Positions 3,307 to 18,305 are shown, numbered from the stretch's first letter. The stretch: DNA of 18,305 bases from a virus (IMGVR_UViG_2529292906_000017), one strand, 5' to 3'. A program made the numbers and translations. Notes: generated by a model from the sequence alone, not told the origin.

Positions 3307-3882
3307 CTACGGCAGTGCTGGCCATTCAATATCCGGTGCAGTTGATGTATCAACACGGTTCAGCAACACCCGATACTTTTTCCAGGCTTCCAGCAACAAG
3401 GTTTCTTCCTCCGTTGCGATCTCCAGATCCACAGCATCCTGAAGCGGCGCTATATGCTCACTGGCTATCTGCATCAGGCTGTTTTTTGTTTCTTCCGCCT
3501 CCCGGATCCGGAACAGTTTTTCTGCTTCCGTATCCTTCACCCAGGCTGTGCCGTTCCACTTCTGATATTCCCCTCCCGGCGATAACCAGGTAACATTTTC
3601 CGGTAACGGACCGAGTTCAGAAATAAATAACGCGTCGCCGGAAGCCACGTCATAAACCGTTTTACCCCGATGATCTTCAACGAGATGCCACGATGCCTCA
3701 TCACTGTTGAAAACAGCCACGAAGCCTGCCGGAATATCTGGCGGTGCAATATCGGTACTGTTTGCTGGCAGACCTGTATGAGGCGGAATATATGCGTCAC
3801 CTTCACCAATAAATTCATTAGTTCCGGCCAGCAGATTATAAATTTTTATGGTCCGTGGTTGTTCACTCATTCTGAATGCCAT
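3307..3882 (-). CDS. tfaQ: Tail fiber assembly protein (lambda Tfa-like)
   Basis: 191-aa ORF, near-identical over its length to lambda Tfa as recalled ([24 protein letters not shown]...). Start overlaps the stop of the upstream stf fragment. Confidence 0.85.
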
Positions 3883-7560: not shown

Positions 7561-7756
7561 CTTTTTTAAATCCAACGACAGACGGCTGGCATTTAAGTAT
7601 TGTGAAATATTATCAAATGTAATCATCATTGATTTACAAAAGATACATTTTGCCCCGAAAGGATTCATGTCAGAAACATCAAAAGATGATGTTCTATACT
7701 GGGAACCATGACAACACGGGCATCTAAAGTGAATATGGTTTGTAATATTGTCTACC

Positions 7757-7969
7757 TCAAAGCGCCACTACATGAACAGCGGCAGGACCTTTAGGTCCGT
7801 TCTCAATACCAAATTCAACTTCCTGATTCTCAGTTAATGTTTTGAAATCGTTGCTCTGAATTGCTGAGAAATGGACAAACACATCTTTGCTGCCATCTTT
7901 CGGCGTGATGAAACCAAAACCTTTTTCAGGGTTAAACCATTTCACTAAACCAGTCATTTTGTTAGACAT
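7757..7969 (-). CDS. cspI: CspA-family cold shock protein
   Basis: 70-aa [41 protein letters not shown] with RNP1/RNP2-like motifs (KGFGFI, VFVHF). Confidence 0.9.
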
Positions 7970-8330
7970 AATTATTACCTTTTGAAGAAATTAGCCCTTG
8001 GGCAGAATGGTCCGAAAAAAATATCAGAGAGAAAAACCAACAAGGAAATCTCAAGAGGTACAAATAATAAAATTATAACAATGACTGCTTCAGATAAATT
8101 TGTAACAAACCAGAACACCATTAACGCATGATTAACCACCCATAGCAAGGATTACTTTTGTAAAGAAAAACACAGCAATGAAAGAATAGCTTTATTTATT
8201 AATAAAACGTGTCATTCTGATTAAGACCTTTTATCTTACCCTTAAGATTTCAGGAATTTTGGCTCATGGAAGAGTCCTTTTTATTTAAATTTTACATTCC
8301 GCGATGTAAATGTTCCGATTTAATATTACC

Positions 8331-10362: not shown

Positions 10363-10517
10363 TGTGGTGCTTTTTGTGGGAGTCATCCACTTACGCACTT
10401 TGTTTTGCCATGCCAGCAGTTAGCTTCTGCTGTAAAACTATTCATGCAGCAAACCTGCACTTCACCACAATGGTTAGCATACTTTTCCTGATTAAGATTT
10501 TGGGTAATGACTCCAAC

Positions 10518-10895
10518 TTATTGATAGTGTTTTATGTTCAGATAATGCCCGATGACTTTGTCATGCAGCTCCACCGATTTTGAGAACGACAGCGACTTCC
10601 GTCCCAGCCGTGCCAGGTGCTGCCTCAGATTCAGGTTATGCCGCTCAATTCGCTGCGTATATCGCTTGCTGATTACGTGCAGCTTTCCCTTCAGGCGGGA
10701 TTCATACAGCGGCCAGCCATCCGTCATCCATATCACCACGTCAAAGGGTGACAGCAGGCTCATAAGACGCCCCAGCGTCGCCATAGTGCGTTCACCGAAT
10801 ACGTGCGCAACAACCGTCTTCCGGAGCCTGTCATACGCGTAAAACAGCCAGCGCTGGCGCGATTTAGCCCCGACGTATCCCCACTGTTCGTCCAT
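10518..10895 (-). CDS. insB: IS1 InsB transposase domain (InsAB' C-terminal part)
   Basis: [65 protein letters not shown]... matches IS1 InsB. Confidence 0.8.
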
Positions 10896-10914
10896 TTCCG
10901 CGCAGACGATGACG

Positions 10915-11214
10915 TCACTGCCCGGCTGTATGCGCGAGGTTACCGACTGCGGCCTGAGTTTTTAAATGGCGGAAAATCGTGTTGAGGCCAACGCCCATAA
11001 TGCGGGCAGTTGCCCGGCATCCAACGCCATTCATGGCCATATCAATGATTTTCTGGTGCGTACCGGGCTGAGAGGCGGTGTAAGTGAACTGTAGTTGCCA
11101 TGTTTTACGGCAGTGAGAGCAGAGATAGCGCTGATGTCCGGCAGTGCTTTTGCCGTTACGCACCACGCCTTCAGTAGCGGAGCAGGAAGGACATCTGATG
11201 GAAATGGAAGCCAC
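10915..11214 (-). CDS. insA: IS1 InsA with altered C-terminus from a shortened A-run at the frameshift site
   Basis: [43 protein letters not shown]... is InsA (zinc finger plus HTH), but the ORF ends ...[18 protein letters not shown] (99 aa) instead of ...RHLKNSGRSR (91 aa) because TTTAAAAACTC has A5 where IS1 has A6C. Confidence 0.8.
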
Positions 11215-11413
11215 GCAAGCACCTTAAAATCACCATCATACACTAAATCAGTAAGTTGGCAGCATTACCAGATTTTGCCAAATATGCTAGCCATTGTTTC
11301 ATGTATTGGACCTCCTTACTTTTTATTAAAGAGATCCAATATTCACTACTCTGTCCGTATCTCTACTCAGGCATCAGCCTTCTTCGTTATCGTATACAGA
11401 CGAGCGATGAATT

Positions 11414-11629
11414 TTAATCAGTAATGATGACATTTGCTGCTGCAGGACCTTTAGCACCACTCTCTATAGAGAAGGTAACCTTTTGACCTTCAAATAAGGT
11501 TCGATAATTATCATTCTGAATCGCAGAAAAATGCACAAACACATCTTTACTACCATCAACAGGAGAAATAAAGCCGAAACCTTTATCAGCGTTAAACCAT
11601 TTTACTAAACCAGTCATTTTATTTGACAT
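11414..11629 (-). CDS. cspB: CspA-family cold shock protein
   Basis: 71-aa [41 protein letters not shown]..., paralogous to the ORF at 7757..7969. Confidence 0.9.
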
Positions 11630-11929
11630 TCTACATTCCTTAACTTGAGCCTTTCGGCATAAATGGTTTGCATAACAGAAACGACTTCGTACTTAATTGG
11701 AGAGACTCAAAGAAGGAATAAGTGAATAACACCTGAAATGAGAACTGCTTTAGTAAACTACTTCGTATATCGTCTGTTCTTCAAACCGACGCAATCATTA
11801 ACGCATAGTTGAACATATGAAGCAATGTTTATTTTAGACATCCAGCCATCTTCAACCCCATCAAAAAACTATAGCTTTCTTCAGGAACGTGTGTATAGTG
11901 CGCCAAGTTATCAGTATTAAGGAATTTTT

Positions 11930-12142
11930 TTGTCCCGTAAAATGACAGGAATTATCAAAACCTTTGACGGCAAAAGCGGCAAGGGTCTTATCACCCCATC
12001 CGATGGTCGTATCGATGTCCAGCTTCATGTTTCAGCGCTCAATCTCCGCGATGCAGAAGAAATTACCACCGGATTACGCGTGGAATTTTGCCGGATAAAT
12101 GGTCTGCGTGGCCCTTCAGCTGCCAATGTTTACCTTTCATGA
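11930..12142 (+). CDS. cspF: CspA-family cold shock protein paralog, apparent TTG start
   Basis: 70-aa ORF (M)[43 protein letters not shown]...; first codon at 11930 is TTG, with AAGGA upstream. Confidence 0.8.
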
Positions 12143-12196
12143 GCTATATTAAAGCTTTAATTTCAGGCCCCATCGGATCACACATGGAGAGTTTTT

Positions 12197-12286
12197 ATGA
12201 ATAACCCCGTCTGTCTTGATGACTGGTTGATTGGCTTTAAAAGCTTATGCTGTACTTTGGCCGTAATAGCTCTGCTAATAATATAA
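12197..12286 (+). CDS. Candidate small membrane peptide (29 aa), unassigned
   Basis: ATG at 12197 preceded by GGAGAG; [29 protein letters not shown] has a hydrophobic C-terminus. Very short; could be chance. Confidence 0.2.
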
Positions 12287-12440
12287 TAAGCAGACTCATT
12301 GTGTTTAGGGACATTGTACTGGAAGAAAACATTTTAAACATCAGGCAAATAACCAAGTCACCAGCTAAATAATAAGTTAACAGACATGAGTCCCGGGATG
12401 AGATTCAACATTACCATTGCCCCATTTAAAGCACAAAACC

Positions 12441-12464
12441 CGCTCATCAGCGGGTTTTCTACTT
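12441..12464 (-). terminator. Terminator hairpin about 100 nt downstream of the Q gene (tR'-like)
   Basis: AAACCCGCT-CATC-AGCGGGTTTT with T-rich tails on both strands. Confidence 0.5.
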
Positions 12465-12502
12465 TTTCTTAACGTCGGGTATACAAAGCCCATCGTTGAA
12501 AA

Positions 12503-12531
12503 ATTTTATCCATATTTTTTGAAAAATGCAA
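12503..12531 (-). promoter_or_regulatory. Putative Q-dependent late promoter (pR'-like)
   Basis: On the minus strand TTGCAT (12526..12531), a 17-nt spacer, then TAAAAT (12503..12508), immediately downstream of the Q stop and upstream of the terminator hairpin. Arrangement resembles lambdoid pR'-tR'. Confidence 0.35.
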
Positions 12532-12562
12532 ACATCATGTCGCCATCTTCAGCAAAAATCAT

Positions 12563-13315
12563 TTATCTCGTCACCTTCCTCAATTGCGCTTCCGCGTATG
12601 CTTCTTCCTGCCAGCACTTTGTTACCAGTTTACCAATGACGTCCGCATACCCCTTATACCACTGATAATCGGTCAGGTCTGGTACCAGCTTCTGGACATG
12701 ACGTCGTGCCAGCGTGGTCGGTAAACGACTAAACCGGTTTCCATTACAACGCCCACAAATCTTATATACCGGTACGCCATGAAACCGGGTTCTTTTTTCA
12801 TCCAGAACAATCCCTTTACCCTTACACCCTCTGCACGCTGTGCTGGCTTCGCCCTTACCATGGCAATGCTGACATAGTTCCTTCACCCATTCTTCCTTGA
12901 TTACAGATTCCCCGCGTCTGTAGTGTTTCACCACTTCGCGCAATACATTATAAAATCCCGTACCTGAACAATGCTCACAGCGAGCCTTACTTGCCGCAGA
13001 CCTGGAGTAATCAGCAAAGGCAAAACTCACGAGGTAAGGAATAATCTGTAACCGGATTTCTTCACTCAATTTGTTCAATGTCGGGTTATCCAGTGCCATC
13101 GCGTAATTTAGCAGGCCTTCAATCGCAAACTGAGGGTCCTGAACACCAACTTTTGCCAGAAATAAGGCCAACCCAAGTGGTGCTTTCGACTGCACCATCC
13201 CCTGCGCTGCCATTACATCCGTAATTGTTAAACAACCGGTGCCTGTCGCTGGAGCGTCATCGCTCAATTTTGGAGATTTTGGGGAGTAATATTTTGGTAA
13301 GGCTTCAAGGTTCAT
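12563..13315 (-). CDS. quuQ: Late-gene antiterminator Q (phage 82-type)
   Basis: 250 aa from MNLEALPKYY...; Cys-rich zinc-binding region CEHCSGTGF...CQHCHGKGE...CRGCKGKG...CGRCNGN. The track ORF 12563..13345 adds 10 upstream codons. Confidence 0.85.
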   Translation of the reverse strand: MNLEALPKYYSPKSPKLSDDAPATGTGCLTITDVMAAQGMVQSKAPLGLALFLAKVGVQDPQFAIEGLLNYAMALDNPTLNKLSEEIRLQIIPYLVSFAFADYSRSAASKARCEHCSGTGFYNVLREVVKHYRRGESVIKEEWVKELCQHCHGKGEASTACRGCKGKGIVLDEKRTRFHGVPVYKICGRCNGNRFSRLPTTLARRHVQKLVPDLTDYQWYKGYADVIGKLVTKCWQEEAYAEAQLRKVTR

Positions 13316-13328
13316 GCTCGTTCTCCAC

Positions 13329-14417
13329 TTACGCCAGTACGCCAATTGCCAGCGCGCGATCGATAAAACGAAATATCAGCTCCAGTTGGGAGCCATACTT
13401 ATCTTCAAATGCCACTGTATCCGTATGCAGCTCGTTGTGATGCTTTCTGCACAAAGGCAACACAAAGAGATCATGTGCTTTTGTTCCCATTCCGCCCTGC
13501 CCGTGACCAATCAGATGATGCGGATCGTCGGCTGGCATACCGCAGCAAGCACACGGCTGTGTCTTAACCCAACGTGTGTATTTCTCCTTAACCCAGCGGC
13601 GACGTTTAGGCAGCTTCATGAAAGATTCCGGAGACTCTGGATCAACGGTGATGCTTACCACCGTCTTTTCCTGTGGTGATTTTTGTTGCTGGTGGGCGTA
13701 AGGCAACGGTGCAAGATTTTTTGTGCGTTGTTTCAATATGCTGGTGGCGGTCTGCTCTCCCGGTACGATGTCGCTTTCGCGGTACACCGAGCAGATTTTT
13801 TCCGCTGGTAATCCCAGCGAACGACGCGATACAGCCTCAGGTAGTGCATCCACCACCTGATTGCAGACCGCCCACCAGGATAATTCAGCCAAAGATAATT
13901 CCCGCTCCTGCGTACCGCTTATTGCGTGACGGATGACGTCAATCACCCATGCTGTCAGATTTTGTTGAGCAAGCAGCTCCAGTGATTCCGATGTCTGGTC
14001 ACGCAGTTGGTTGTCGCAGTGCCAGCACAACACCATTGCGCCGGTACCATAACGGTGAATGACTGTTTCAGTGTGATGGTAATCGCCATTAGGCCACTGG
14101 CAGGATGTAACATGACGTAATAGCCAGTCGGACAATGCGCCAACGCCGCCAGCAGCACGAATCACCCGTTCGTTACTAAAAAACGGCAGCAATGTTTTGT
14201 CTTCCGCCAGCGGCTGGCGAACGGCAGGAACGACTCCGGATGGCAGATTACGCATGCTTTTTGGTTCCGGTTCCACCAGCACTCGAGGATTATGAAATAT
14301 CTGTATGGATTCACGGCCCGGCTTAAGGACCACCAGCCCAAGCTCAGGCACCAGAACAGGTCTAAGTAATACCCGCACGTTACCTCCAGATCCGTTGCTG
14401 GAAAGTGCGGGACGCAC
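13329..14417 (-). CDS. ydfU: DUF968-family prophage protein with Cys/His cluster
   Basis: 362-aa track ORF; C-terminal region TQPCACCGMPADDPHHLIGHGQGGMGTKAHDLFVLPLCRKHHNELH suggests a metal-binding (HNH-like) motif. True start uncertain (Met1 or Met55). Confidence 0.7.
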   Translation of the reverse strand: MRPALSSNGSGGNVRVLLRPVLVPELGLVVLKPGRESIQIFHNPRVLVEPEPKSMRNLPSGVVPAVRQPLAEDKTLLPFFSNERVIRAAGGVGALSDWLLRHVTSCQWPNGDYHHTETVIHRYGTGAMVLCWHCDNQLRDQTSESLELLAQQNLTAWVIDVIRHAISGTQERELSLAELSWWAVCNQVVDALPEAVSRRSLGLPAEKICSVYRESDIVPGEQTATSILKQRTKNLAPLPYAHQQQKSPQEKTVVSITVDPESPESFMKLPKRRRWVKEKYTRWVKTQPCACCGMPADDPHHLIGHGQGGMGTKAHDLFVLPLCRKHHNELHTDTVAFEDKYGSQLELIFRFIDRALAIGVLA

Positions 14418-14658
14418 GTGGTGGGCGTTCGGAATAAGGCAGCCTGACAGAGATTATCCAGTGCCGATAGTCGAGACTGAGAGCTTTCTTAACCTCGAAC
14501 CCGCGCCTGCGGTAAGAATGAATCAGCCATTCGGCCTGTTCTGCAGTGCATGGAGGGTGCTGGAACCATTCAGACTTGAATGCGTGAGAATACCGCCCGT
14601 GCGTGCAGGCAAGAACGGGCGAATTATCAGAATTGTAATATTTTGCGTTGCGTGCCAT
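14380..14658 (-). CDS. Hypothetical 92-aa protein overlapping the ydfU start, unassigned
   Basis: ATG preceded by GGAGAAAAC; MARNAKYYNSDNSPVLACTHGRYSHAFKSEWFQHPPCTAEQAEW... contains a C-x-H...H...C arrangement. Overlaps ydfU by 38 nt in a different frame. Confidence 0.4.
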   Translation of the reverse strand: MARNAKYYNSDNSPVLACTHGRYSHAFKSEWFQHPPCTAEQAEWLIHSYRRRGFEVKKALSLDYRHWIISVRLPYSERPPRASRTFQQRIWR

Positions 14659-14724
14659 CGGTTTTCTCCGGTGGCACGGTGTTACTCAGCGGGAGTTCAG
14701 CCCCGCGCAAGATTGTAGATGAGT

Positions 14725-14976
14725 TTATTCTCCTGAAAAAGCAGAAAAGCCAGCTTTTATTCCGATCTCTTTCAATGCCTGTAATGAAGTGACAAACTCA
14801 CCTTCGCGCAAGATAAATCCGTCCGTGACCCGAGCATCCACAAAATTAATTAACGCAGCCCCATTCTTTCGCAAACACATAATGCGGTAATGACTAACAA
14901 GATTTCCATTTTCAACGCACACAGCATAGAGGCCATCTTCACAAAAAATTTTACGCAGTTCTTCGATGTTCATCAT
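14725..14976 (-). CDS. rem: Rem-like 83-aa prophage protein
   Basis: 83-aa ORF MMNIEELRKIFCEDGLYAVCVENGNLVSHYRIMCLRKNGAALINFVDAR... between ydfU and hokD; symbol assigned from position and length only. Confidence 0.45.
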   Translation of the reverse strand: MMNIEELRKIFCEDGLYAVCVENGNLVSHYRIMCLRKNGAALINFVDARVTDGFILREGEFVTSLQALKEIGIKAGFSAFSGE

Positions 14977-15087
14977 CAGAATCCTTCCGGATAATTAGCT
15001 CTCCCCTTTAAGGGACCATCCCTCTTATCCCTGCGCGCTACTTAAGTATTTTTGATTCTATTCCGGCACCGTCCAGAACTTCAAACG

Positions 15088-15121
15088 CGTTGAAAATAAA
15101 AACAAAAACCCGCCGAAGCGG
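15088..15121 (-). terminator. Rho-independent terminator downstream of hokD
   Basis: Minus strand reads AACCCGC-TTCG-GCGGG followed by TTTTTGTTTTTATTTT; lies 70 nt past the hokD stop. Confidence 0.55.
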
Positions 15122-15192
15122 GTTAAGTGCGGGTGCGTTGAGGATGCCTGCCACATCAGAGGTGGCGAGGGATTTCTCCCCCGCCGGGTCTC

Positions 15193-15348
15193 TTACTCCT
15201 CAGGTTCGTAAGCTGTGAAGACAGCGACCTCCGTCTGGCCGGTTCGGATTCGTACCTCGCAGAGGTCTTTCCTCGTTACCAGTGCCGTCACTATGACGGT
15301 TAAACAGATGACGATCAGGGCGATTAACATCGCCTTTTGCTGCTTCAT
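15193..15348 (-). CDS. hokD: Hok-family type I toxin
   Basis: Reverse-complement translation MKQQKAMLIALIVICLTVIVTALVTRKDLCEVRIRTGQTEVAVFTAYEPEE (51 aa), GGAG upstream; not in the ORF track (under 60 aa). Confidence 0.85.
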   Translation of the reverse strand: MKQQKAMLIALIVICLTVIVTALVTRKDLCEVRIRTGQTEVAVFTAYEPEE

Positions 15349-15419
15349 AGCCTGCTTCTCCTGTCAACGCAAAGCAGAAGTGTCACCTTCGGTGCGAAAC
15401 AGAGATGTCATGCTTTGGT

Positions 15420-15707
15420 TCAGAGAATGCGTTTGACCGCCTCGCTATATACTTCCGAGCGTTCTCTTTTCCCAACAGAAATCACGAAAACGACAACTTT
15501 CTCGTCTATAACCTGGTATACAAGGCGATAGCCTGAAGACCGGAGCTTAATCTTGTAACAATCAGGCATACCACGGAGCTTGTTTGCTTCAATCCGGGGT
15601 GACTCAAGTACTTCAACCAGCTTCTTTTTCAACTGTTCACGTACCGTCGAGCCCAGCTTTCGCCATTCCTTTAGTGCCCGCTCGTCAAAATCCAGAAAAT
15701 ACGCCAT
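15420..15707 (-). CDS. relE: RelE mRNA interferase toxin (type II TA)
   Basis: 95-aa ORF MAYFLDFDERALKEWRKLGSTVREQLKKKLVEVLESPRIEANKLRGMPDCYKIKLRSSGYRLVYQVIDEKVVVFVISVGKRE. Confidence 0.9.
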   Translation of the reverse strand: MAYFLDFDERALKEWRKLGSTVREQLKKKLVEVLESPRIEANKLRGMPDCYKIKLRSSGYRLVYQVIDEKVVVFVISVGKRERSEVYSEAVKRIL

Positions 15708-15946
15708 CAGAGTTCATCCAGCGTCACACGTACTGGCTTAGGATTACGAAGCCGTTCTTTCACTATCTCCACAAGTTCAGCATCTTCATCACTCAGGAGT
15801 GTCTGTTTGAACGGCAAGCGTTCATTGTCAGCGATATACTCGAGCATGAGACGAAGCGCTTCAGAAGGAGTTACACCCATTTTTTCAAGCGCGGCGTAAG
15901 AACGCGCTTTAAGTTCATCGTCAATACGCAGGTTAATGCTACCCAT
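15707..15946 (-). CDS. relB: RelB antitoxin (ribbon-helix-helix)
   Basis: 79-aa ORF MGSINLRIDDELKARSYAALEKMGVTPSEALRLMLEYIADNERLPF...; 1-bp overlap with the relE start. Confidence 0.9.
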   Translation of the reverse strand: MGSINLRIDDELKARSYAALEKMGVTPSEALRLMLEYIADNERLPFKQTLLSDEDAELVEIVKERLRNPKPVRVTLDEL

Positions 15947-15957
15947 GTCTTACACCT

Positions 15958-15983
15958 CTTGTAATTACAAATGTCATTACAAG
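15958..15983 (-). promoter_or_regulatory. relBE operator (relO-like inverted repeat) at the relB promoter
   Basis: CTTGTAATTACAAATGTCATTACAAG contains inverted TTGTAAT/ATTACAA repeats immediately upstream of the relB SD (AGAGGTG). Confidence 0.6.
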
Positions 15984-16149
15984 TATCGCACTACAACATG
16001 CTTAGGGCAAGTCACGAAGGAAGTCAGAAAGTAGTCGTAAGAACGGTGATCACTGTCCGCTTTGTGCCAGGAGCAGCCATTGCTAAGTCCATCCTGTATT
16101 GTGCAGGTCAGCTCGTTTTTAAAGAGTCCGGCCATCATCTTACTGGTAC

Positions 16150-17037
16150 AGACACCATATACTTTGTGACGGTCTGAATCGCCACGGATAATCTAGACAC
16201 TTCCGAGCCGTTGATAATACTGGTTTTCATATTCTGTCGGTGACATCTGATCGCTGGAACCATGCCGACGCTTACTGTTATAAAACATTTCGATGTAATC
16301 AAAAATATCGCTGCGGGCTTCTTCCCGCGTTCCGTAGATCTTTTTCTTTATCCGTTCACGTTTCAACAACTGGAAAAAACTTTCTGCAACCGCATTATCA
16401 TGGCAGTTACCGCGACGGCTCATGCTACCCTCCAGGCCGTGTGATTTCAGGAACGACTGCCACTCATGGCTTGTGTACTGACTGCCCTGATCCGAATGAA
16501 CCAGCACCTTTTTTTCGGGATTACGCCGCCATACAGCCATCAGCAGTGCGTTCAGGACAATGTCCTTTGTCATCCGGGATTGCATGGACCAGCCGATAAT
16601 TTTGCGTGAGAACAGATCAACAACAACGGCAAGATACAGCCAGCCTTCGTGGGTCCTGATGTAGGTTATGTCCGTTACCCAACGCTCATCAGGAGCATCC
16701 GGATTGAACTGTCGCTGGAGCCTGTTGGGTGACACGATACTGGCCTCGCCTTTACGTGCCCGCGGGCTTCGGTATCCGACCTGAGCCTTTATTCCGACAC
16801 GTTTCATCAGTCTCCAGACTCTGTTTACTCCGCACTGTTGCCCGCTGTCACGCAGATCCAGATGGATTTTGCGATAACCATAGACGCATCCCGATTCCAG
16901 CCAGAACTGTTTAATCTGTCCTGTCAGTCTCAGGTCTGCCTGATGGCGTTGTGAATGCGGCTGCTGAAGCCAGGCGTAAAAACCACTGGGATGAACATCC
17001 AGCACCCGACAGAGCAGGCGAACAGGCCAGCAACAGG
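16150..17037 (-). mobile_element. IS600-like IS3-family element, truncated where the next IS begins; outer boundary approximate
   Basis: Contains a complete orfB; its reading frame continues open upstream to 17037, where the TGAACCGCCCCGG terminus of the next IS begins, so orfA and the other end lie outside the window. Confidence 0.7.
16193..17005 (-). CDS. IS3-family transposase OrfB (IS600-like), DDE integrase domain
   Basis: 270-aa ORF (GTG start) with ...WVTDITYIRTHEGWLYLAVVVDLFSRKIIGW...HSDQGSQYTS...CHDNAVAESFF, the DDE motif region of IS3-family transposases. Confidence 0.85.
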   Translation of the reverse strand: MLDVHPSGFYAWLQQPHSQRHQADLRLTGQIKQFWLESGCVYGYRKIHLDLRDSGQQCGVNRVWRLMKRVGIKAQVGYRSPRARKGEASIVSPNRLQRQFNPDAPDERWVTDITYIRTHEGWLYLAVVVDLFSRKIIGWSMQSRMTKDIVLNALLMAVWRRNPEKKVLVHSDQGSQYTSHEWQSFLKSHGLEGSMSRRGNCHDNAVAESFFQLLKRERIKKKIYGTREEARSDIFDYIEMFYNSKRRHGSSDQMSPTEYENQYYQRLGSV

Positions 17038-17091
17038 TGAACCGCCCCGGAAATCCTGGAGACTAAACTCCCTGAGAAAGAGGTAAACAGG

Positions 17092-17418
17092 ATGACTAAA
17101 AATACTCGTTTTTCCCCCGAAGTCCGTCAGCGGGCGATTCGTATGGTTCTGGAAAGTCAGGATGAATATGACTCACAGTGGGCGGCAATTTGTTCCATTG
17201 CCCCAAAGATTGGCTGTACGCCGGAGACTCTGCGTGTCTGGGTTCGCCAGCATGAGCGGGATACCGGGGGCGGTGATGGTGGGCTCACCACCGCTGAACG
17301 TCAGCGTCTGAAAGAGCTGGAACGTGAAAATCGTGAACTGCGCCGCAGTAACGATATCCTTCGCCAGGCTTCCGCTTATTTTGCGAAGGCGGAGTTCGAC
17401 CGCCTCTGGAAAAAATGA
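17092..17418 (+). CDS. IS3-family transposase OrfA (HTH plus leucine zipper)
   Basis: 108-aa [60 protein letters not shown]...[27 protein letters not shown]. Confidence 0.85.
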
Positions 17419-18305
17419 TGCCACTGCTGGATAAGCTGCGTGAGCAGTACGGGGTCGGACCGGTATGCAGCGAACTGCATATTGCCCCGTCAACGTATTA
17501 CCATTGTCAGCAACAGCGACATCATCCGGATAAACGCAGTGCCCGTGCGCAGCACGACGACTGGCTGAAGAGAGAGATACAGCGCGTATACGATGAAAAT
17601 CATCAGGTGTACGGTGTGCGTAAAGTCTGGCGTCAGTTGTTACGGGAAGGAATCAGGGTGGCCAGATGTACAGTGGCGCGCCTCATGGCGGTTATGGGAC
17701 TTGCCGGTGTTCTCCGGGGTAAAAAGGTCCGCACTACCGTCAGCCGGAAAACCGTTGCCACAGGTGACCGCGTAAACCGTCAGTTCGTGGCAGAACGTCC
17801 TGACCAGCTGTGGGTGGCTGATTTTACTTACGTCAGCACATGGCAGGGCTTCGTCTATGTGGCGTTTATCATTGATGTGTTTGCCGGATACATCGTGGGG
17901 TGGCGGGTCTCATCGTCTATGGAAACGACATTCGTGCTGGATGCGCTGGAGCAGGCGTTGTGGGCCCGTCGTCCGTCTGGCACCATCCATCACAGCGATA
18001 AAGGCTCTCAGTATGTGTCACTGGCCTATACGGAGCGACTAAAAGAAGCCGGATTACTGGCATCAACAGGGAGTACAGGCGACTCGTATGACAACGCGAT
18101 GGCTGAGAGCATCAATGGTCTTTACAAAGCGGAGGTAATACACCGTAAGAGCTGGAAAAACCGTGCAGAAGTGGAACTGGCCACACTAACGTGGGTGGAC
18201 TGGTATAACAATCGACGATTGCTGGGAAGGCTGGGCCATACTCCTCCGGCAGAAGCAGAAAAAGCTTATTATGCTTCCATCGGAAACGATGATCTGGCAG
18301 CCTGA
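17415..18305 (+). CDS. IS3-family transposase OrfB (IS629-like), DDE integrase domain
   Basis: 296-aa ORF with ...[31 protein letters not shown]...[10 protein letters not shown]...[16 protein letters not shown]. Confidence 0.85.

Follow-up and report, generated by a model that had tools for sequence, protein, structure and literature searches.

Among the closest described systems to the locus reported here are the hok/sok (parB) locus of plasmid R1 and the relBEF operon of E. coli K-12. The R1 locus is a type I system which has its own promoter, the mok frame, the Sok RNA and the tac-fbi closure, and which gives rise to post-segregational killing; translation of hok in R1 requires the overlapping mok frame. 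For the K-12 proteins of the second system, which are identical to those found here, passages of PMC2812701 describe the ribosome-dependent cleavage of mRNA by the toxin RelE, the Lon-labile antitoxin RelB, repression at relO by RelB2-RelE and derepression by excess RelE or by RelB degradation (conditional cooperativity), and call the relBE promoter strong. The relO hexads, [A/T]TGT[A/C]A, and their half-site layout have been defined by mutagenesis and hydroxyl-radical footprinting (PMC2812701). In the K-12 Northern blots of Kasari et al. the probes for relB, relE and relF (hokD) all detect one full-length transcript, and deletion of PrelBEF abolishes both its induction and the 3' fragments that accumulate; primer extension was also carried out in that work. 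Induction of the relBEF transcript was seen on starvation for amino acids and with several toxins, and after mRNA-interferase cleavage its relF portion is the most abundant mRNA fragment (Kasari et al.). A published table gives relE and hokD as 71 nt apart and cotranscribed, relBE has been stated to be integrated into the hokD locus, and hokD is classed in the literature as inactivated by rearrangement. Toxin-antitoxin cassettes have been described to move as a promoter/operator plus open reading frames, without a terminator. Since the Northern blots, the promoter deletion and the statement on relBE in hokD are published, the locus, its co-transcription, the missing mok and sok and the integration of relBE into a hok locus are already in the literature. 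What may be new is the sharp end of the relBE cassette and its repeated pairing with hok genes that have no leader.

The window, by which we mean the whole stretch of 18,305 nucleotides analysed, carries the three genes between positions 15000 and 16100. This region has 100% DNA identity to E. coli K-12 MG1655, and out of 5426 complete E. coli genomes 1162 contain at least 80% of it, with relB, relE, hokD and ydfV as the annotated genes. From the K-12 identity and this annotation the locus is therefore identified, on sequence grounds, as the relB-relE-hokD (relBEF) operon of the E. coli Qin cryptic prophage. Nucleotide identity to the K-12 Qin operon extends from 11270 to 16174 and takes in the promoter, relO, relB, relE, the spacer, hokD, the terminator and rem, so that the surroundings alone differ: in the window an IS1 is present at 10503-11269, and nested IS3-family elements cut ydfV at 16174, where the similarity to K-12 ends and is followed by an IS3-family transposase fragment and an IS1203/IS629-like element. 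A preliminary description had put the module at the prophage edge, for which no confirmation was found. The true left junction of Qin, with the truncated ydfJ, lies at the start of the window. In each of three genomes compared (K-12, NCTC9038 and AH21) the prophage runs on past relB, with ydfV, flxA and additional genes, and in AH21 it reaches an integrase about 10 kb away; in the window, ydfV is interrupted by IS elements. The gene identities and the shared orientation given in that description are right, with the correction that all three genes lie on the minus strand. Coordinates of all features are listed in Table 1.

Table 1. Features of the relB-relE-hokD locus, in window coordinates.
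Feature	Position	Strand	Remarks
Possible hok promoter -10/+1 remnant TAGCAATGGCTGC	16085..16073	-	Weak; just left of the cassette
Mobile relBE cassette	~16069..15362	-	708 nt: upstream hairpin region, promoter/operator, relB, relE, 58-nt 3' flank
relBE promoter -35 TTGCCC	16010..16005	-	Read from the sequence
relBE promoter -10 GATACT	15987..15982	-	Overlaps the first operator hexad
relO operator palindrome CTTGTAATGACATTTGTAATTACAAG	15983..15958	.	12-nt arms, 92% complementary; overlaps the -10
relB	15946..15707	-	79 aa; ribbon-helix-helix antitoxin, autorepressor; DNA 100% identical to K-12 relB
relE	15707..15420	-	95 aa; ribosome-dependent mRNA interferase toxin
relE-hokD spacer	15419..15349	-	71 nt, from relE stop to hokD ATG
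mok frame remnant overlapping hokD	15200..15382	-	Open only downstream of the in-frame TGA at 15385..15383
hokD Shine-Dalgarno (SD) sequence AGGAG	15361..15357	-	hok-derived; strong; 8 nt from the ATG
hokD (relF)	15348..15193	-	Intact 51-aa Hok-family membrane toxin ORF
TAC codon of Tyr47, context UUACGAA	15210..15208	-	Published site of A-to-I editing by TadA; changes Tyr to Cys
Orphan fbi-like element GCATCCTCAACGCACCC	15153..15137	-	In hokD 3' UTR; conserved in alignment with intact relatives
Intrinsic terminator AACCCGCTTCGGCGGGTT plus T run	hairpin 15124..15107, with T run to 15098	-	Terminator scan

The type II part of the locus is composed of RelB (PF04221, E=1e-32; NCBIfam equivalog NF008412, 133 bits against a cutoff of 96) and RelE (PF05016, ParE_toxin/RelE, E=2e-13; TIGR02385, 54.7 bits), the start of relE overlapping the stop of relB as ATGA at 15707. 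The promoter has a 17-nt spacer between -35 and -10 and matches the consensus at 8 of 12 positions, which is slightly below the threshold of the promoter scan. The operator palindrome that had been described at the relB promoter is present and corresponds to the published relO: it is detected as an inverted repeat plus a direct repeat and consists of two abutting 12-bp half-sites, TTGTAATGACAT and TTGTAATTACAA, in which the four published hexads are found as TTGTAA/TGACAT/TTGTAA/TTACAA at 15982..15959. With RelB, RelE, the stop/start overlap and the relO features all in place, RelBE is recognised as a type II system.

HokD matches the HOK_GEF profile (PF01848, E=1e-23) over positions 1-42 of 42 and is annotated as hokD in RefSeq; its match to the NCBIfam Hok subfamily model is below the cutoff of that model. 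The protein is identical to K-12 HokD, which is reported in passages of the literature to be toxic on overexpression and whose mRNA is subject to A-to-I editing by TadA, about 6% of it being edited in K-12. A terminator after hokD had been proposed and is indeed there, as a hairpin with a 7-bp stem (five GC pairs) and a TTCG loop, which also forms in the predicted mRNA folds. This minus-strand hairpin is the sole terminator-like site within 14950-16150. The 3' UTR and terminator of hokD also gave sub-threshold Rfam matches, to isrK (25 bits against a cutoff of 50) and to rsmX, P9 and others (E<=10, within 15000-16100), all of which we judged to be chance or generic hairpin-plus-terminator similarities.

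The spacer between relE and hokD, previously given as 72 bp, is one nucleotide shorter and has two components: 15419..15362 is the 3' flank of the relBE cassette and 15361..15349 is derived from hok. To look for a hok leader we used Rfam model RF01794, which covers the leader with the Sok target and gene, with four intact hok loci as controls. These scored 122 bits for the hokC locus, 115 for the hokD-like locus of plasmid pSCEC128, 87 for R1-type hok/sok and 115 for phage mEp460, with a hok that shares about 98% identity with hokD; in 15000-16100 there was no match at E<=10 with permissive filters. The promoter scan found no sigma-70-like site inside the operon or the spacer on either strand, 15150-15450 included, and no terminator-like site was found on either strand of the 71-nt spacer. 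Alignments of intact hok loci place the Sok promoter on the other strand, with its hexamers immediately preceding the hok SD, and here the positions of the Psok -35 and -10 are occupied by relBE-cassette sequence. Similarity to intact phage and plasmid hok loci begins only at 15362, 14 nt before the hokD ATG, both in BLAST and in alignments. The mok ATG of the intact relative sits inside the leader that is deleted here; in the remnant of the frame the original ATG and its SD are lost, and the first possible start is a TTG at 15367 without SD. The fbi-like element is likewise left without its partner: in intact relatives this is the 5' tac element GGGTGCTTGAGG, and in the MFE fold of the intact locus L002 the 5' GGGUGCUUGAGG closes on the 3' CCUCAAUGCACCC, while a tac-like sequence, sought throughout the operon, was not found.

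The view that no mok or sok lies between relE and hokD is thus upheld by the blank RF01794 search and by a mok frame that has no start and is closed by a TGA. The search for a sok antisense promoter in 15349..15419 and in the hokD 5' region returned no promoter-like element and no Rfam sok; there is no intact mok or sok promoter, and HokD has the K-12 sequence. The description of the locus as a tandem of type II and type I modules holds for relBE and fails for hokD, as three defining features of a type I hok/sok system, the Sok leader, a mok frame with a start and the tac-fbi pair, are absent; the toxin ORF is present. As far as the sequence goes, hokD is an orphan toxin ORF with its 3' UTR and no antitoxin, and not a type I module.

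The opposite reading would be that hokD is still an autonomous type I system, served by an unrecognised promoter, by a divergent antisense antitoxin RNA or by both. In its favour, the promoter-deletion strain of Kasari et al. kept a transcript hybridising to relE and relF, which the authors put down to a promoter created by the deletion itself, and a possible remnant of the hok -10 is present upstream of the cassette. Against it stand the lack of sigma-70-like sites on both strands of 15150-15450, the cassette sequence that fills the Psok positions, the absence of an Rfam sok at E<=10 where the four controls reach 87-122 bits, the deletion of the Sok target region from the mRNA, and the dependence of the induction of the relF signal on PrelBEF. 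We regard an autonomous hokD as extremely improbable.

The orphan state of hokD can be followed back by comparison with phages. Lambdoid phages mEp460_ev081 and HannyBb carry hok/sok (of the hokW/mokW type), rem and Q in the same order and position (hok-rem-ydfU/Q) as here. Phage mEp460 aligns to 15362..13329 of the window with 94.7% identity over 2,034 nt, the alignment starting at the junction, and across hokD, its 3' UTR and rem the intact lambdoid-phage loci are 98% identical, with the same SD, ORF and fbi. The phages keep a leader of about 155 nt with tac, the mok start and Sok (sok match of 115 bits), in place of which the 708-nt relBE cassette is found here. From the gene order shared with these phages, and from the identity and complete leader of mEp460, it follows that hok/sok was still intact in the ancestor of this Qin region. 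The cassette now occupies the site of that leader, whose components (the 5' tac, the start of mok, the region targeted by Sok, and both the Sok gene and its promoter) are all lost, and hok is reduced to the SD, the 51-codon ORF, the orphan 3' fbi and the terminator.

The right end of the cassette, ...GCGTTGACA (also ...CTTCTGCTTTGCGTTGACA), is sharp at 15362, and its left end can be placed to within about 9 nt. In a survey of 80 RelE-homologue loci, with one genome per species, the relE 3' flank ...CACTTCTGCTTTGCGTTGACA was conserved to the final base and then followed by at least 12 unrelated right-flank sequences, the break falling exactly after TTGACA; on the left, the flanks begin to differ immediately before TGGCACAAAGCGGAC, some 125 nt upstream of relB. 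These breaks mark relBE out as a discrete mobile unit. Bordering the cassette on its left, TAGCAATGGCTGC gives a local alignment to TAGAATGGCTGC, which lies immediately 5' of the mEp460 hok mRNA start, with a score of 19 that is reached by 3 of 1000 shuffles; the match may partly belong to the variable left end of the cassette itself. A similarity between the sequences that precede the relBE -35 and the phage hok promoter was not significant, its score of 21 being reached by 33 of 1000 shuffles. Terminal inverted repeats, as in a MITE-like cassette, scored 29 in the window against a shuffle maximum of 24; in other contexts they were marginal (21-22 against shuffle maxima of 20-24), and in diverged cassettes they were absent, so that a mechanism based on such repeats is not supported. 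Target-site duplications are not visible at the cassette flanks.

The 71-nt spacer contains neither a promoter nor a terminator, and hokD is therefore the third cistron of the mRNA made from the relBE promoter. The earlier proposal that hokD depends on read-through from this promoter agrees with the empty spacer and with the published Northern blots and PrelBEF deletion. A single mRNA runs from the relBE promoter through relB, relE and hokD to the terminator at 15107-15124. Lacking an antitoxin, hokD would depend for its output on relBE autorepression and on the efficiency of its translation; it would be limited in the first place by RelB autorepression and in the second by poor translation. 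Taken together, we consider it highly likely that this is the Qin relBEF operon in which the cassette replaced the hok leader, and that hokD is a co-transcribed, antitoxin-less and probably poorly translated passenger, which may be largely silent.

The same cassette end is found next to hok genes in other genomes. Where RelE is at least 90% identical, a hok ORF directly follows the cassette end in 14 of 35 loci, and no hok leader was found in the hok-linked loci checked, which were 8 of the 14 (among 20 loci scanned) and a Klebsiella plasmid locus. The linked Hok lineages are HokD itself, R1-like proteins of 69-85% identity, a HokD-like protein of 70% and a relative of 40%. Junctions vary (GGAGAAGAAGGCCATG, GGAGAAGAAGCCATG, GGGAGCATGAACATG, GATGTTAGCCATG, GATATG and GAGAAGTAAGCTATG), with a spacing of 3 to 13 nt, and the pairs occur on plasmids and in genomes of Klebsiella, Enterobacter, Kluyvera, Pseudocitrobacter, Huaxiibacter and other Enterobacterales. 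Insertion sequences part relE from hok in some plasmids. Citrobacter portucalensis has an intact hok leader (94.7 bits) that directly adjoins this cassette end, is inverted and ends at the hok ATG; no hok ORF was found. Over 697 nt, from the promoter to the hok SD and ATG (ATGAA), Klebsiella pneumoniae MS6671 plasmid A (IncHI1B/IncFIB) matches the window at 98.9% identity, and it shares the 71-nt spacing and the lack of a sok leader. After ATGAA the DNA similarity is lost: the hok of this plasmid belongs to another lineage, R1-like, with 76% DNA identity to R1 hok from 14 nt before the ATG, and its 3' UTR and terminator differ from those of hokD.

Two origins could account for these pairs, either a single fusion followed by exchange of hok paralogues, or repeated joining at the hok start region. 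With at least four Hok lineages involved, the cassette may have displaced leaders repeatedly or been re-paired, so that a Hok governed by RelB would be a recurrent and selected arrangement with the hok start as a preferred target; we find this unlikely on balance. If true, a type I toxin would have exchanged its RNA antitoxin for the transcriptional autorepression exerted by a protein antitoxin. The passages of a recent survey of Hok diversity available to us make no mention of relBE-linked forms of hok.

The least certain step of our explanation is that hokD is probably poorly translated, which draws on the absence of mok, on the published view of hokD as inactivated and, with mixed results, on predicted folds. 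A consensus fold of ten hok loci pairs the SD/AUG region with the 3' end of the ORF, with a few compensatory pairs; this helix is seen in the fold of the 326-nt fragment and is absent from that of the 878-nt full-length mRNA. In the latter the hokD SD has a predicted unpaired probability of 0.06-0.4, its predicted partner not being the same in the fragment and in the full transcript, and the local SD hairpin is unexceptional (z=-0.23; 74 of 200 shuffles fold equally well). Two more specific pairings gained no firm support. An anti-SD in the last relE codons (AUUCUCU-AGGAGAA, P ~0.7 in the full-length fold), which would suggest translational coupling of hokD to relE, forms the local hairpin just mentioned, and no covariation of this pairing was found in diverged cassettes. 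Pairing of fbi with UGCGUUGA(C)AGG at the cassette end and SD, seen in the 326-nt 3' fragment, is lost in the full-length fold and is missing also in the Klebsiella variant with the same spacer, and is thus not robust. The predicted alternative partners of fbi are likewise inconsistent between folds.

It is at this step that a different explanation has to be weighed, namely a functional three-gene module with two toxins, in which translation of the relBEF mRNA, or of its stable 3' cleavage fragment, would yield HokD as a second, membrane-targeting toxin, RelB repression of transcription would be the sole control and the linkage would be selected. The strong SD and the intact ORF, identical in many genomes, are what would be expected of it, and they count at the same time against a largely silent hokD, as do the abundance of the relF fragment and the lack of robustness of the structure predictions. 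The accumulation of that fragment after cleavage is also in line with a functional module since Kasari et al. show that toxin-encoding fragments can be translated, and so is the editing of the hokD mRNA at the Tyr-to-Cys site. Intact leaderless hok ORFs of several other lineages, 40-85% identical to R1 Hok or HokD, adjoin the same relBE end elsewhere, which speaks both for the module and against silence; the linked hok genes may, however, have evolved under selection ahead of the fusion, and their intact ORFs are therefore no proof of a functional module. The absence of mok, which R1 hok needs for its translation, argues in the other direction. Cells probably survive strong relBEF induction, which is not known to lyse them; this would also count against a functional module. 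Further points against it are that the field classes hokD as inactive, that the literature searched reports no HokD-dependent effects, and that an IS separates relE from hok in some plasmids. We hold the functional module to be rather unlikely, and retain as the preferred reading that hokD is a passenger of the relBE transcript.

The locus may serve as a textbook case of gene capture by a mobile, terminator-less type II cassette lying upstream, and it shows that a relBE deletion has polar effects on a toxin gene. The pairing of the cassette end with varied leaderless hok genes on the clinically common IncHI1B/IncFIB plasmids bears on how toxin genes outlive their antitoxin, and on the question of selection for hybrid type II/type I modules. 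With the R1 hok/sok (parB) locus the present one has in common a Hok-family ORF, the SD region and the 3' fold-back element, together with a helix between SD/AUG and the ORF 3' end that is predicted in part of the folds, while hokD is without any of the 5' elements of R1. The identity between HokD and R1 Hok is only moderate at the protein level; for comparison, HokW, another Hok of 51 aa from a lambdoid phage, is 44% identical to R1 Hok. In mazEFG and other type II operons with a downstream gene a mobile, terminator-less toxin-antitoxin cassette likewise drives transcription of the gene behind it; unlike in mazEFG-type operons, the downstream gene is here a toxin gene that has lost its former RNA antitoxin.

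Judged from sequence comparison, relBE (promoter, relO operator, relB, relE and a short 3' flank) forms a discrete cassette that behaves as a mobile unit. The two ends were compared over loci L011-L045, taken from other genomes and plasmids, and the window. At least twelve unrelated contexts were found immediately past the invariant right end in L011-L045, and the sequence near the left end forms an 8-bp hairpin in many copies. No target-site duplication was visible at the copies in these loci, and inverted-repeat ends are not conserved in the diverged copies.

The left boundary is crossed by the annotated ORF ydfV, possibly chimeric or spurious, which lies on the strand opposite to the cassette and starts inside relO. 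In the window it is additionally truncated by IS insertion; similarity to E. coli K-12 stops at 16174, within ydfV, and positions 16175-18305 are occupied by IS elements of the IS3 family and of the IS1203/IS629-like type, which appear nested or adjacent.

Features located in the window
Feature	Position	Strand	Remarks
relBE right end	15362		...CACTTCTGCTTTGCGTTGACA; invariant across compared loci
relBE left end	about 16069		near (GTCCGCTTC)TGGCACAAAGCGGAC
ydfV ORF as annotated	15971-16177	plus	
IS3-family transposase ORF	16193..17005	minus	rve domains
IS1203/IS629-like element	17038 to window end	plus	after the IS3-family ORF
orfA of this element	17092..17418	plus	
ALIL frameshift pseudoknot of this element	17373..17489	plus	
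hokD Tyr47 codon TAC	15208-15210	minus	context UUACGAA
Rfam IS009	3341-3539	minus	221 bits, above gathering threshold
cspA-type thermoregulator leader (Rfam), cspI locus by position	7730-8114	minus	114 bits, above gathering threshold
cspA-type thermoregulator leader (Rfam), cspB locus by position	11398-11790	minus	159 bits, above gathering threshold

Elsewhere, compared with K-12 and NCTC9038, the window has 767 nt inserted at 10503-11269, within the Qin region of essD/ynfU-cspB. This stretch encodes InsA- and InsB-like ORFs and, from recognition of these protein sequences, appears to be IS1. The segment 4484-5435 (about 950 nt) has no counterpart in the one locus compared by BLAST, and around it related genomes carry the annotation of a host-specificity protein J fragment.

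The hokD Tyr47 codon in its UUACGAA context is the published TadA A-to-I editing site, at which Tyr is recoded to the conserved Cys. Past the relBE end, just after the relE spacer, at least four divergent hok lineages, all leaderless ORFs, directly abut the cassette (L003, L012-L014, L017, L018, L020, L023-L026, L035 and L039), and the junction has several different sequences among these loci. In Citrobacter portucalensis A60 (L021:1846-2011) the right end is abutted by a hok leader that is intact (94.7 bits with Rfam sok) and inverted, with TTGACA joined to ATGGCCTTCTTCTCC; the hok ATG marks the end of this leader, and neither of its flanks yielded a hok ORF. The Klebsiella plasmid pLH99-d-A (L008:1284-2394) carries an insertion of about 1.1 kb between relE and hok, right after the GGAGA of the hok Shine-Dalgarno sequence, so that hok is disconnected from the relBE operon. 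The IncHI1B/IncFIB plasmids of Klebsiella and Enterobacter carry a relBE part that matches the E. coli one at about 99% identity, yet their hok gene resembles that of plasmid R1.
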